From positions 37,572,001 to 37,636,000 of the forward strand of contig OZ024753.1 of the NCBI GenBank assembly GCA_964016885.1: a stretch of 64,000 bases of DNA. Reading direction: 5' to 3'. The stretch is from Eledone cirrhosa (Eukaryota). Positions 2,140 to 62,261 of this stretch are shown here, piece by piece (within the stretch, counting starts at the first letter, position 1; every line of letters begins with the position of its first letter). Made by a program: the position numbers and the translations under genes. The notes below the pieces were generated by a model, which was not told where the DNA came from, ran no database searches, and worked only from the letters and a program-made list of their open reading frames with translations.

Positions 2140-2598
2140 GTGTAGGGTTTTACATGTATATACACACACCAAACTGCTTTTTAACCCTTTGTGTTTTCAT
2201 TGGTCAATTTTGAACTGATATTTTGAATTGTTGTTATTATCAATAAATATACTTCATTATTTCTGAAGACGGCGTATATATGAGTTAGGTATGTATATTT
2301 AATCTTGATAATTTGTATAATTTTGTATAATTTTGTACATAGATCTGTTAAATATGCATACCAATTATAACACATATATACCCTAGAAACGATCGTTAAA
2401 TAGTGAACTTTTTTTGTTTAATATAAGGAATTGTTTGTTCATTATTTGTTTAATATTTTATCTTGACTCTGCATACCGTTTATCTTTCACCGAAATTGGA
2501 TTTTCATTACATCTCTTCTTTCCATGATATCCGGAATACATTGAGTTCTTCATACGGATTGGACACTACCGTAAACTCTTGGTAGATTTATCTACATA
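2140..2598 (+). mobile_element. PLE-type terminal repeat / HHR-bearing element end abutting (TA)n (family B, copy 1); 5' boundary uncertain
   Basis: Contains the HHR; its last ~290 bp recur at 8477-8780, and both end ...ggtagatttatctac|(TA)n. Confidence 0.7.
2253..2407 (+). ncRNA. Type-I hammerhead ribozyme with a very long (~115 nt) stem II
   Basis: Stem I ttcattattt(2253-62)/aaatagtgaa(2398-2407); core CTGAAGA 2263-69; stem II arms tatatatg-gtta-ggtatgtatatttaa / ttaaatatgcatacc-taac-catatata; GAAAC 2386-90, palindromic loop GATC, cleavage triplet GTT 2395-97. Confidence 0.8.
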
Positions 2599-3235
2599 TA
2601 TATATATATATATATATATACACTTATATATACATATATTTATATATATATATACACACATATATACATACACACACATATATACATATATATATATATA
2701 CAAATATATATATATATTTATATTTATATATATATATATATATATATATATATATATATATATATATATATATATATATATATATATATATATATATACA
2801 TATACATATAGTATAATAAAATACACATATATATATACATGTACAAATGTGTGTGCAAAAAATTGGCACCAAAGTCGAATCTATTTTGAGATAGTATTGC
2901 ATGATTGTTGTTAAACGAAGGAAATGGCTGAACGATAGATCGAAGTTCAATAGGGATTATGCCGTCCGTCAATTTACCAAAGCTATGACTAAGGCACCTT
3001 ACACCGATATTGAGGTAGCTGTGATATAATCAGAGTTTAAAATACATAAATTTATTGTTCGCCTTTATCTAAATTGACGCCAATTTAGTGCTATCACCAA
3101 AATATGTGTTAGTGTATATATTTCGTGTATCCAGGGCCTATAAGTCCTTGTTGTGTCGTATTGGCTTTTAAACCTGGTGGAGCCCATTACTCGCCGGGTT
3201 TGAACCCAGACGATTTTTTCTAAAGAAGGTGACAG

Positions 3236-3378
3236 ACCCCAATACTGGACCAGTACTTTATTTATCGACCACGAACGTATGAAAGTTACAGTTGGGTTCT
3301 GCAAGATTTGAACCCATGATGCAGAGTGCCGGAATGAATTCCTCGAAGTATCCTCTCCGATGTTTTAGCCAATTCGCT
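3236..3378 (-). mobile_element. Old diverged tRNA-derived SINE copy
   Basis: Reverse complement of the cagtactt-attttatcgacc...atgaaag...gatttgaac core seen in the intact SINE copies. Confidence 0.55.
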
Positions 3379-3789
3379 TCCCAGATCTATACACAGAAAC
3401 AAAAACACATAATTTGAACCTGCCATATCAAATTACTTCTCATGAACTTATACAATATAAAATATTTGACGGTCATGGAGTATGAAAATGTCTTCTGAAG
3501 ATAGGTTTTAATATACAGCTGTTATCCATTAATTCTTTCAATCCACTAATGAGAAATGTCAATGAAGGGAGCCTGTGTACGGTTGCTCGATTTACTAAAA
3601 ATAAAAAAAAAATGGGATCGCAGCTAGTTTTCCCCGTAACTAAATACCGCAAGGCAATTTGTCCTAAGTTCCGACAACTCTGCCAAGCCACAATTATATT
3701 GAAATGAAGATCGGCTAGATATCGATCTATGAGCATAGGAATATCAACAAAATCTGAATTCATTCCTTTCAAAATTTGTCGGTATGCAA

Positions 3790-4155
3790 GTAATATTTGT
3801 GTTAATATTGAGTGACCTACATATTTTTATACAGCTGTCATCCTTCATATGCATCACATATCCACACCATTGTAATCTCCTTTCTAGCACACTGCATATG
3901 ATCCTTCTTATGCCCAGTTTCTTTCTTAGTTCATTTACACTTTGAATTCATGTATATTACTATTACACATCCATCGGAGCAAGCAGGCTTCGTTTCTTTC
4001 CAGTCTTCATAGGTCCTCTGCACACAGCACCCAGGTCTCACTACCATACAACATTGCTGTTCGTATACATACATCATACAATCTGTCCTTCATTTTGAGA
4101 GAAACACATTGTGTAGCTAGCAGCGGTAGTAGTTCCATTAACTTCTTTTCTCAAT
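3790..4155 (-). pseudogene. RTE-clade LINE ORF2 C-terminal fragment with a stop and a frameshift
   Basis: Minus-strand translation ELLPLLATQCVSLKMKDRLYDVCIRTAMLYGSETW...RLERNEACLLRWMCN / SVNELRKKLGIRRI...ERRLQWCGYVMHMKDDSCIK matches the RTE LYGSETW and RRLxWxGHV motifs. Confidence 0.85.
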
Positions 4156-58238: not shown

Positions 58239-58445
58239 CAGATATATTCCATTACTTAGTTCTTTGTTTGGGTTCTTTTGTTTGCCAACACTATTGTTAT
58301 CATTGGTTTTTGATGACTCTTCATTCTAGCTCTCATAATCATTTGGCCACTGTACCGTATCTATGTCTTCACTATTACACCTTATTAGTATACATAAGAT
58401 TACACACGTTATTACCTTTATATATTCTTTTATTATCATTAACTT

Positions 58446-58965
58446 TAATTTTTAATTTTAACATTATTTTTATCATTATTTTTATTTTTATTTTCAATTC
58501 TATTTATATTTTTATTTCTAAGTCTATTCTGATTTATCTATTAACCCCCCCCCCCTCCCCCCCCCCATGCACGCATAAACTTATTGTCAACCCCCCTAGA
58601 TTGAATATGATTATATTAACCCCCCCCCCCCACTCTTTTATGCTCTGTTCTATTATTTATTATAGTATATCGAATTTATTATAATTTATTATAGTATATC
58701 GAATTTATTTATAATTATAGTATATTTAATTTTTAATTTTAACATTATTTTTATTTTCATTTTTATTTTTAATTTTAATTCTATTTATATTTTTATTTCT
58801 AAGTCTATTCTGATTTATCTATTAACCCCCCCCCTTCTCCCCCCCCCCCCCCCCCATGCACGCATAAACTTATTGTCAACCCCTCTAGATTAAATATGAT
58901 TATATTAACCCCCCCCCCACTCTTTTATGCTCTGTTCTATTATTTATTATAGTATATCGAATATA
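58446..58965. repeat. ~280-bp direct tandem duplication inside the PLE 3' region, with poly-C runs
   Basis: ttctatttatatttttatttctaagtctattctg at ~58498 and ~58779. Confidence 0.9.
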
Positions 58966-60420
58966 TTTTATGCTACTTCGCACCCTCCATATATTTCGTC
59001 AATTCTGTCCTCATTAGCTTACCTTAACTTTACTTAAGTCAGTTTTTTAGATATCGTTGCGTGTATGATAGTGTAATTTTTATTCCTTTTTGTAAACATT
59101 TGTAACGATATATTAAATTTTATATACTTTAATGACTGAGACTATAGCTAATTTTATACTACCTTATCGGACGGGTTTGATATTTTTAATATTAATTTAT
59201 CAAATAGGGTTGGGAATCATTTAAAATGATCGTTTTCCTGGGTGTTTACCAAATTTCTTAATGCACGCGGGACTTAAGTGTGTACACATTTGCTTCGTTT
59301 TGTAATTTCCGGTTGATTGTTTTTATTTACCACTCACTGTCTGGCTTTGCTCATCCACATATGTCTGTCTACTAACCTTGAAATTATAAGTATTTATTTA
59401 TATATTATATGCCTATTTTTAAAATATATTACATTATGATATAGATCCTTATTACTTACCGTTTATTATATATAACATTAAGATACTTAAACTTTATATT
59501 TTTTAATATTTTAATATTTTAATATTTTAATATTTTTAATATTTTAATATTGTAGTATGTAACATTATGGTATTTAGACTTTACATATCATGTTAGATGT
59601 CTATATATTTTTTCTGTAACAACATATTTTTTCTGTAACATCATAATTGTTCCCTGTACCAATATAGTTTTTTTGAGTATTATTGTATTATTGTATTATA
59701 TTTCCCCATTTATTATGTAACCCAATATGAACCATGTTGTACATATTGATTATGGTAATTGTTAATATAATGTTAACAACTTATCATTGTATTTCACTGT
59801 GACATCTATATTGTTTCTGTAAATTAACCGGAGATTATATATATTCTTATTTTATATATATTCTACTTTATTATATTGTATTATATTATATAATTTTGTT
59901 GTTTATTATTTATTATAAGTGTTTCTTGTAATTATTGCCCCATGTATATTTAGTAGATGTATTAGCATTATTTTCACTATTACCATGCTTATTTTTAATA
60001 TTTTTGATGTTTAAACTTCCAATAGGGCTTAATTTCTGTGTAATGGAAAATAGATATGTGTATTGTAATATGTGTGTGTGTGTGTGTGTGTGTGTGCGCA
60101 CATATATACATGTATATATTGTACCTTTTGATTTTTGATTTGGAATTTCAGTGTTGGTATAGATATATTATTATTATAATGTATTATACTGTGTTATATA
60201 TAATTCCTGTTCTATATAACCAAATTTGTTTAGATTTAAGTTGGTGACTTTGGACCATATTTGTAATATGGTTCTTAATGTTATCTACATCCTTAGTTAT
60301 TATAATTTTATTAGTTTTATCTTCATTTTTATTATCGTATATCCTTGTAAGACATTAGTGTATGTAAACTCCATATTCTTCAGAGTTTCTGGCTTGTATC
60401 TGCCGAAATTACCTCTTGTT

Positions 60421-60477
60421 GTTTTGATTGCCCTGATGAGTCCTTAATAGGACGAAACATTGTCGGCTAATAAAAAC
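60421..60477 (+). ncRNA. Canonical minimal type-I hammerhead ribozyme of the PLE pLTR
   Basis: gtttt-g-att-gcc CTGATGA gtcct-taat-aggac GAAAC ATT GTC ggc-t-aat-a-aaaac. Confidence 0.92.
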
Positions 60478-62261
60478 TTTTGATGTATTAAAGGATTCTT
60501 TGTTTTACTCTCTTAATATATATGTATATATACATATATATATATATATATATACATATATATATATATGCATATATATATGTACATATAAGTACATATG
60601 TACATATAAGTATATATATAAGTATATATATAAGTATATATATATGTGTGTGTATATATATATATATATATACATATATATATACTTATATATATACTTA
60701 TATATACATATATATATAATATATACATATATATATATATTATGTATATATATATTATATATATATATATTATGTATATATATATATATATATATATATA
60801 TATATATATATATATGTGTGTGTGTACACATATATATATATATGCATATATATATATCTATATATATATATTTATATATATATATACATATATATATACT
60901 TATATATACATACATACATATATATATATATATATATATATATATATATATATATATATATATATATATATATGTGTGTGTGTGTACATACATATATTTA
61001 TACATACATACATACGAACATATATGCGTTACGTGTGTACATGTGCACGTGTATACATGTGTACGTGTGTACGTGTGTATATATGTGTGTATATATGTGT
61101 ATGAATATATGTCAACAAGTGGCGGAAGTAATAGCTGTTATTGGGATTCTAGTGACATCTTCAAAATTATCTCTTAATTGTCTTTAAGCTTCAATACAAC
61201 TTACATCCGTGTCAAAAGTCAACTTAAGATGAGTTCTTGTCAGTTGTTGTCAAAGTACTTTGATCTGTTTTGATATTAATAAATAGGTTATTTCTATTAT
61301 AGTTATGTAACATATTTTTGCTGTTGTAGTTGATATTATTGTCGTTTTTCGTGCTCTTTTTGTTATATTTCCATACTGTATATTATATTTATATTCTATA
61401 ATTGTGTAGTGGGTAGTGTAGTTGTTTTGTAGTGTGTGAGGTTCAGGGCAAGGTAAGAAGAACAAGCTGTAAGGAGCTGAGAGGGAGAAGCTAGAATATA
61501 ATATTAATAAAATACAATAAGCATGATAAACCTTGTTTCAAAACGATGTATGGTATATACACTTTGTGTTTTATTATTCGTTTAGGTGAAGGGAGATGTG
61601 TAGAAAGATGGACGTAGGAGAGTTAATGTTAGAAATAGAATTAGGGTTAGGGTTAGAGTTAGAAGTAGGATTAGGATTAGTTTTAGTATAGAGTCGAAAA
61701 AGAGTCTTGTGTCTATGTTAGAAACCGTCTCTCTCTCTATCTATCTATCTATCTATATATATATATATATATATATATATATATATATATATATATATAT
61801 ATATATATATTCGTAAAAACTTATAAAATTATAAAACCAGAGAAACATACATACACACACATACACACATACATACATACATACACGCATCTATAAACAA
61901 ACATACACATATGCAGAGGAACACATCCACAGAGAAAAAGCGAGAGAGAGAGAGAGAGAGAGAGAGAGAGAGAGAGAGAGAGAGAGAGAGAGAGAGAGAG
62001 AGAGAGAGAGAGAAAGAACCACACAGACTCGCACGTTCACACATTGCATTTCATTTAAACGTGTTGCTATGTATAGTATAATATAGTTATTGTGACAGAG
62101 GTGAGTCTCTTGAGAGACAAGGCTGTATGGAGAAGGCTGTGCTGTTTATAAAAGGAAGCCTTTATAAGCCATGAACAGGCTTACGTCAGCAACCACAACT
62201 ATGGCGATTGACATATACACCATACCATACCACATCACATGTACACATACACCATACTACA

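Follow-up and report, generated by a model that had tools for sequence, protein, structure and literature searches.

Hammerhead ribozyme stubs of Penelope-like elements at (TA)n tracts in the Eledone cirrhosa genome

The association of Penelope-like elements (PLEs), hammerhead ribozymes (HHRs) and (TA)n tracts is already known, including for Hydra elements. Published HHR counts, in the available portions of the sources, run to thousands per genome (~9,000 in Xenopus tropicalis; PMC4209133), with ~5,000 copies in a mussel and up to 120,000, from two families, in axolotl (PMC7229834). Among cephalopods, 235 Rfam hits are reported for giant squid (PMC6962438), the word 'ribozyme' occurs nowhere in the main text of a 2026 repeat annotation of Octopus vulgaris (PMC13282606), and the supplement of PMC8557442, as far as it is available, gives one cephalopod Hydra family, Hydra-1_Obim. 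What PLE hammerheads do is an open question in the accessible parts of PMC8557442 and PMC11167929. Here we analyse a 64-kb window of the Eledone cirrhosa genome (contig OZ024753.1, positions 37572001-37636000 within a 3.0-Gb assembly; ~30% GC), for which a preliminary description had claimed a window-wide HHR 'ecosystem'. The motifs are confirmed in part, are very probably of PLE origin, and belong to a genome-wide population whose scale is apparently unreported.

The preliminary description listed 14 HHR sites. All 14 have the CUGANGA core and GAAA, and ten pass a strict type-I descriptor, which was drawn up after the sites had been inspected and is hence tuned to them. The four failing sites (cores 26417-, 26793-, 31301- and 40403-; signs give the strand) are damaged copies from families that have passing members elsewhere; in 40403-, most of the 5' strand of stem I has been lost at an inversion junction. 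Scanning the 64 kb with the descriptor gives 11 strict motifs, one of them (8254+) new relative to that list: 2263+, 8254+, 28492-, 29055-, 29627-, 30119+, 40073-, 40473+, 43571+, 50193+ and 60433+. Each has the CUGANGA, GAAA and UH core elements and three stems in type-I order. The window also has a near-intact motif at 54992 and roughly a dozen 3' halves. The 14 sites sort into nine families, close to the number first proposed, and four of the sites (28416-30114) belong to a single insertion.

Shuffling and covariation, by which the preliminary description could be refuted, both give supporting results. Dinucleotide shuffles of the window contain on average 0.00-0.03 strict motifs, with at most one in any of 600 (200 global, 200 in 500-nt blocks and 200 in 200-nt blocks). 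Covariation holds in family F, the only family tested: in 50 copies that BLAST, not the descriptor, retrieved, 95.4% of cells are paired, compared with 38-52% in slid-structure controls, and eight of 20 pairs have changed on both sides, seven of them in stem II. The number of pairs with a double change does not exceed its shuffle control (79/500). The Rfam hammerhead models at gathering score match nothing in the window, probably on account of the long stems and atypical pairs, and an E-value scan is swamped by microRNA models matching microsatellites (among the matches listed, the best 150 of 394).

The PLE or retrozyme origin first suggested for these motifs, and (TA)n as their niche, have direct support: HHRs flank full-length open reading frames (ORFs) with reverse transcriptase (RT) and GIY-YIG motifs, and the distance from an HHR to the TA tract downstream of it is fixed. 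The HHRs of families A, H and I lie in the pseudo-long terminal repeats (pseudo-LTRs) of full-length PLEs with Hydra-clade motifs, and an HHR-ORF-HHR architecture is seen in all three. The full copy of family H in locus L075 comprises an HHR at 2736, a 915-aa ORF, a 3' untranslated region (UTR), an HHR at 7577 and (TA)n; the scored copies of this family (n=40) are identical over 141 nt, and 30 of 30 loci terminate in a TA tract. In family A, an HHR and an intact 830-aa ORF precede window core 2263; the element begins 4 kb before the window and lies in a partial tandem of 1.8 units (6.2 kb each, 99.9% identical), which also has an inverted arm. Family I in locus L314 has an HHR at 2184, an ORF and an HHR at 5241 (reverse coordinates). 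The HHR-to-HHR units measure 3.1, 4.8 and 6.2 kb, and these endonuclease-positive (EN+) families show pseudo-LTRs with an HHR, partial tandems, an inverted 5'-truncated copy and a tail.

The 915- and 830-aa products are single ORFs in which, by eye, the YRDD motif of RT and a C-terminal VY...YIG motif of GIY-YIG can be recognized; the family-I ORF has YRDD as well. A Pfam search of the PLE ORFs gave no RT or GIY-YIG match. The family-A and family-H proteins carry RWR, DKT, CxCX5C, CxxC and CxH, and the family-I protein DKT and CxCX5C. The Hydra-clade set (RWK-like, DKT, CxCX5C, CxxC and CxH, no CCHH) is found together with (TA)n insertion, without the clade's tendency to lengths below 3 kb, which is not diagnostic. 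None of the 105 homologues found is informatively named, and the Hydra assignment rests on the motifs. Family D is, by structure, a non-LTR retrozyme, with non-coding, low-GC tandem units, one type-I HHR in each and no LTR. All 40 scored copies are 100% identical over a 161-nt query, and substitutions per unit number 0.55 within arrays and 1.55 between them (11 within pairs), a difference too small to prove rolling-circle copying.

The population extends over the whole genome. In 99 evenly spaced 10-kb stretches (990 kb), we find 76 strict and 91 relaxed motifs, compared with 0-3 and 0-4 in five shuffles. Scaled up, the sample predicts ~230,000 strict motifs (bootstrap 157,000-312,000) and ~275,000 relaxed ones; the strict density is 4.9 per 64 kb, or about 77 per Mb. 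HHR counts track TA content across the sample (Spearman 0.54), with 1.5 motifs per 10 kb in stretches of 5% TA or more and 0.08 in those below 1%. Tracts of (TA)6 or longer make up 12.3% of window bases and 3.6% of those in the genome samples, and 11.8 HHRs are expected from the number of TA tracts in the window, compared with the strict count of 11. The window's excess follows how many TA tracts it has; it is therefore not special, and the 'ecosystem' is not a local feature. The link to (TA)n stands on one side only: a TA tract lies within 300 nt downstream of 78 of 86 sampled motifs (control, 31%), whereas one within 200 nt upstream is no more frequent than in the control (21 and 24%). The claim that much of the unique-looking DNA is element residue was overstated, since hand-drawn spans of HHR-family elements sum to ~11.5 kb, or 18% of the window. 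The distinct motifs in all DNA examined number 274 and group by sequence into 50 families, of which the random sample contains 33. A scan of that sample for U3-A8 cores was excluded from the genome estimate (seven strict matches, 0-3 in the null, most relaxed matches looking spurious).

The copies end at fixed places. In 11 of 12 families mapped together, the 3' ends form two clear clusters as measured from the cut site, each followed by TA, at 51 and 153 nt in family H, 48 and 140 nt in family F, 61 and 200 nt in family A, and 20 and 90 nt in family C. Family G is marginal, with 16 ends at 121 nt and one at 234 nt. Two 3' ends are found in family D (97 and 216 nt) and in family I too, making 13 families in all. 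Both ends lie downstream of the predicted cut site; therefore, the cut site does not set them.

Family I makes palindromic stubs. The window's four (at 16552, 26523, 26974 and 34631) contain the 3' half of a U3-A8 variant HHR, the complete form of which flanks the ORF in L314. Among 80 copies found via the tail (three duplicates and loci gathered in another search being left out), 52 start within -5 to +11 of a proposed +1, an initiator-like site in loop II, 23 start farther downstream and only five extend upstream. An inverted arm ending at the short site is called in 60 of the 80 (automated calls, a few of which, on divergent copies, are doubtful). The two arms differ at 1.46 positions per 45 nt within a copy and at 6.38 between copies (46 copies), indicating, since the arms share variants, that they were copied from one molecule, or one arm from the other. 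Of 13 ends that fall exactly at +1, 12 have a G before them, compared with ~15% at other offsets; where the +1 word is intact (n=54), 42 ends have a templated pyrimidine, 12 a G and none an A. The 5' wall of family F2 is likewise preceded by G (5/6), and 5' walls occur in families I, B and C. The proposed family-I +1 lies ~230 nt before the likely start codon in L314, and in an unlabelled read run, the summed contig depth drops ~25-fold just upstream of the site, a qualitative indication only. In the literature, we found no earlier description of two fixed 3' ends across 13 families or of the palindromic stubs, nor any cephalopod-scale HHR count or start site inside a PLE HHR, which is not proof of absence.

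Three single observations concern these families. One family-I stub of the 80 (L240, about 1480-1580) has both arms ending at the predicted cut site, the outcome expected from a cleaved template. One family-I insertion (L250 / L228) has two short units in tandem; ~35 nt from the 5' UTR of the element link them, with a restart at the proposed +1. In family E, a YY1-like motif lies just downstream of one 5' end cluster, ~60 nt before the core, e.g., at window 31360-31375 (-). A general placement of inversion junctions on HHR stems was ruled out, as junctions are spread in families D and H.

We consider it likely that the type-I HHR motifs come from terminal repeats of many PLE families inserted in (TA)n, and that most copies are short stubs because reverse transcription, begun at either of two fixed sites just downstream of the ribozyme, ends prematurely. 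The GIY-YIG endonuclease would nick both (TA)n strands, and each nick would prime cDNA at one of the two internal sites, as the published biochemistry suggests: in the available part of PMC11167929, the tail is traced to two internal RT start sites, and both DNA strands are nicked and extended in vitro. Both primings may take place on one RNA molecule (twin priming), a step that we infer here. With a promoter-initiated mRNA as the template, the cDNAs would run off the capped 5' end after 60-250 nt and be joined end to end, which would leave solo, half or palindromic HHR stubs. In family I, transcription would start in ribozyme loop II, and the mRNA would carry only half of the ribozyme; full-length and multi-unit copies would require read-through or circular RNA. 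In Penelope, the repeat contains an internal promoter of the initiator type (PMC2377424), and an untemplated G marks capped 5' ends in L1 and SVA (PMC4859970). Because the G at the family-I +1 is untemplated, as a mark of a copied cap would be, run-off at a capped start is proposed, and for this family, we favor that reading, with some reserve, from the sequence of the ends.

A capped start has to be weighed against several results. The preceding G is seen in 0/4 ends of family B, 0/3 of family A, 1/2 of family C and 1/5 of one further family, and in only 1/18 of the tail-ascertained family-I subset; about five of the 12 family-I Gs possibly come from the sequence of the other arm, and the +1 was picked after the data had been inspected. 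The 5' ends of families D, E, F and H are spread or multiple, and the identity of the arms could also have arisen by gene conversion at a later time or by fold-back copying. No ORF of their own is linked to families B, C, D, E and G or to most of the 50, family F being linked only via two inverted loci. Start site, cap, cleavage and circles are all predictions from DNA. The same elements could have 5' walls where RT stops or folds back at ribozyme stems, unrelated to the transcription start, a view that fits the position of the walls on the 5' strand of stem I in families A, B and C, the lack of a G excess there and the short self-complementary words often used at junctions. We judge it unlikely, as the family-I wall falls in an AU-rich loop rather than at the base of a stem, the walls of F2 and others are found 70-180 nt before the ribozyme, and the excess at +1 in families I and F2 is of G only. 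Less likely still, the stubs and palindromes could be non-autonomous mobile units, similar to short interspersed nuclear elements (SINEs) or miniature inverted-repeat transposable elements, that multiply from their own transcripts. Family D, with its identical copies and tandem arrays, plainly is such a unit, and families B and C have almost no long copies; however, the family-I junction sequences vary between copies, as independent events would give, and the long form of family I has an ORF.

That the motifs are retained for action on host RNA, e.g., to cut nascent intron RNA, is very improbable. Their sheer number would suit such a role, as would the stems III of families G and I, which are predicted to be long enough to fold alone. 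Against it, copies decay (four of 14 damaged, many halves), covariation follows subfamilies, as selection during transposition would give, positions follow TA tracts, and stem III is mostly of the dimer type. Chance matches in AT-rich, low-complexity DNA are refuted by the shuffles of the window and the genome sample and by the covariation, even though bare CUGANGA is only modestly more frequent in the window (35) than in local shuffles (~24, maximum 37) and several monomer HHR folds are no more stable than shuffled sequence.

Stem III is fully self-complementary in 29 of 44 short-stem-III families. Such a stem III marks the dimer-requiring form, which cleaved poorly or needed protein (available portions of PMC4209133 and PMC11167929). 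Most solo copies are therefore predicted to cleave poorly, as their stem III needs a second copy. Constrained HHR folds are predicted to cost 1.2-6.9 kcal/mol above the best fold, and the window's best monomer candidate is core 43571, with its long stem III (z -3.7). No exon was recognized in the window by Pfam among the 150 of 335 candidate frames scanned in the window and 80 kb on each side. Self-cleavage within introns, which had been raised for this region, is doubtful for most copies.

The features of the window are collected in Table 1.

Table 1 HHR-family elements and SINE-like copies in the 64-kb window (window positions).
Positions	Strand	Feature
1..2596	+	3' UTR and 3' pseudo-LTR of full-length family-A PLE; ORF and 5' HHR in preceding 10 kb
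2251..2409	+	Family-A type-I HHR; stem I of 10 bp, stem II long, stem III palindromic; cut predicted after 2397
8240..8348	+	Type-I HHR, sole known family member in DNA examined; predicted cut after 8333
8495..8777	+	Family-A stub (3' half) beginning within stem II; 89% identity with 2322-2595
16552..16749	+	Family-I palindromic stub with short inverted arm and long-tail arm; contains 3' half of U3-A8 variant HHR
22093..22149	-	Family-C 3' half stub
26345..26440	-	Family-B HHR, core 26417; A-C mismatch at second pair of stem I
26523..26713	-	Family-I palindromic stub
26744..26828	-	Family-C HHR, core 26793, with inverted arm; predicted inactive (G at position 17); inverted-arm hairpin buries core (z -6.08)
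26974..27165	+	Family-I palindromic stub; right arm begins at proposed +1, preceded by untemplated G
28206..30107	-	Family-D non-coding tandem array, ~3.4 units of ~563 nt, cores 28492, 29055, 29627; retrozyme-like
30103..30273	+	HHR (core 30119) on inverted arm of that family-D insertion
31126..31375	-	Family-E minimal HHR stub, core 31301, weakened stem II; ends approximate
34631..34810	-	Family-I palindromic stub
37892..37950	-	Family-B 3' half stub
39886..40134	-	Family-F HHR stub, TA tracts on both sides, core 40073
40301..40575	.	Family-F2 inverted pair: damaged HHR 40403 (-), intact HHR 40473 (+)
42262..42339	+	Family-I tail alone
42681..43841	.	Family-G composite: inverted 3' half; copy with stem III deletion, core 43063; intact long-stem-III HHR, core 43571
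50181..50323	+	Family-F HHR, core 50193
54980..55066	+	Near-intact HHR of another family, core 54992, stem II substitution; absent from preliminary description
57724..57902	-	Inverted long-tail arm of family-H insertion; ends within HHR core
57902..60517	+	5'-truncated family-H PLE: GIY-YIG C-terminus (to 58238), 3' UTR, HHR core 60433 (predicted cut after 60464), TA tract
13643-13831, 36376-36840, 36992-37304, 40759-40867, 49135-49313, 50077-50195, 12202-12258		SINE-like copies

Other repeats share the window. The SINE-like family, abundant and unrelated to the HHRs, has at least nine copies, 86-97% identical. An inverted pair at 35933-36209 and 37384-37655, 95% identical and with (ATTAT)n flanks, has a CUGAUGA core without a downstream GAAA and is perhaps a further degenerate or differently organized family. 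Two near-identical 3' ends (27183-28100 and 62721-63032; 97.8% over 267 nt), which we take to be of an RTE-type long interspersed nuclear element, each adjoin a TA tract and have no Pfam match. Minisatellites lie at 7263-7857 (49-nt period), 21034-21620 (55 nt) and 55646-57550 (13 nt). About 48-80 kb past the window end lie four cyclin T/K-like ORFs without introns, duplicated in both inverted and direct orientation (L089:8069-9067, L090:3295-4293, L092:2304-2987 and 7461-8459), and a TM9SF/EMP70-like exon is found at L089:2667-2903.

This ribozyme population escapes standard Rfam annotation altogether. Its dozens of young families and its insertion footprints, in the hundreds of thousands, allow ends to be mapped family by family against the cut site and the start site, which makes the function of PLE hammerheads testable; the population is also a source of many natural long-stem and core-variant hammerheads for assay. 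As a tentative synthesis, the genome may hold one of the densest known hammerhead populations, at ~77 per Mb and with 50 or more families, because reverse transcription of Hydra-type PLEs begins close to the capped 5' end of the mRNA and leaves ribozyme stubs as a by-product. In some families, a promoter firing inside the ribozyme might split it, so that only read-through or tandem RNAs, able to template full-length copies, would be cut; the HHR would then act as a switch between mRNA and template.

The known systems, as described in the portions of the cited sources available, share some features with those seen here and differ in others. Like the PLE hammerheads of PMC4209133, those of E. 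cirrhosa are type-I HHRs in pseudo-LTRs with a palindromic stem III, an extra nucleotide after A9 and the U3-A8 variant, and they occur mostly as solo copies from truncated PLEs, with opposite-strand pairs and several families per genome. Unlike them, they number ~230,000 by sampling rather than thousands, in many cases have stems II of up to 115 nt, and often lack the G10.1-C11.1 pair, G and C standing at those flanks in 12 of 50 families. The carriers resemble the Hydra clade of EN+ PLEs (PMC8557442) in the C-terminal GIY-YIG, DKT, RW(R), CxCX5C linker, CxxC, CxH, HHRs and (TA)n insertion. The published clade is small and its elements short (<3 kb), in contrast to the 3.1-, 4.8- and 6.2-kb units, the many families and the recent near-identical copies found here. 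Family D is similar to non-LTR retrozymes (PMC7229834; 10.64898/2026.07.22.740005) in its non-coding, low-GC tandem units with one type-I HHR each, and differs from them in the unit length (563 nt compared with a typical 150-450), in the PLE-type inverted arms and in the two fixed 3' ends in (TA)n. Poseidon PAc (PMC11167929) provides a biochemical parallel: its two internal start sites in vitro match the tails described here, its target is AT-rich, and HHR cleavage is dispensable for its insertion. The tails are ~40-140 nt long here and 30-40 nt in Poseidon PAc, for which that account describes no palindromic stubs, capped run-off or start inside an HHR. L1 twin priming (PMC4859970) likewise yields inversions via two primers on one RNA and an untemplated G at full-length 5' ends; in E. 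cirrhosa, by contrast, both primers would start close to the 5' end, at internal sites that are fixed, and the two arms overlap.

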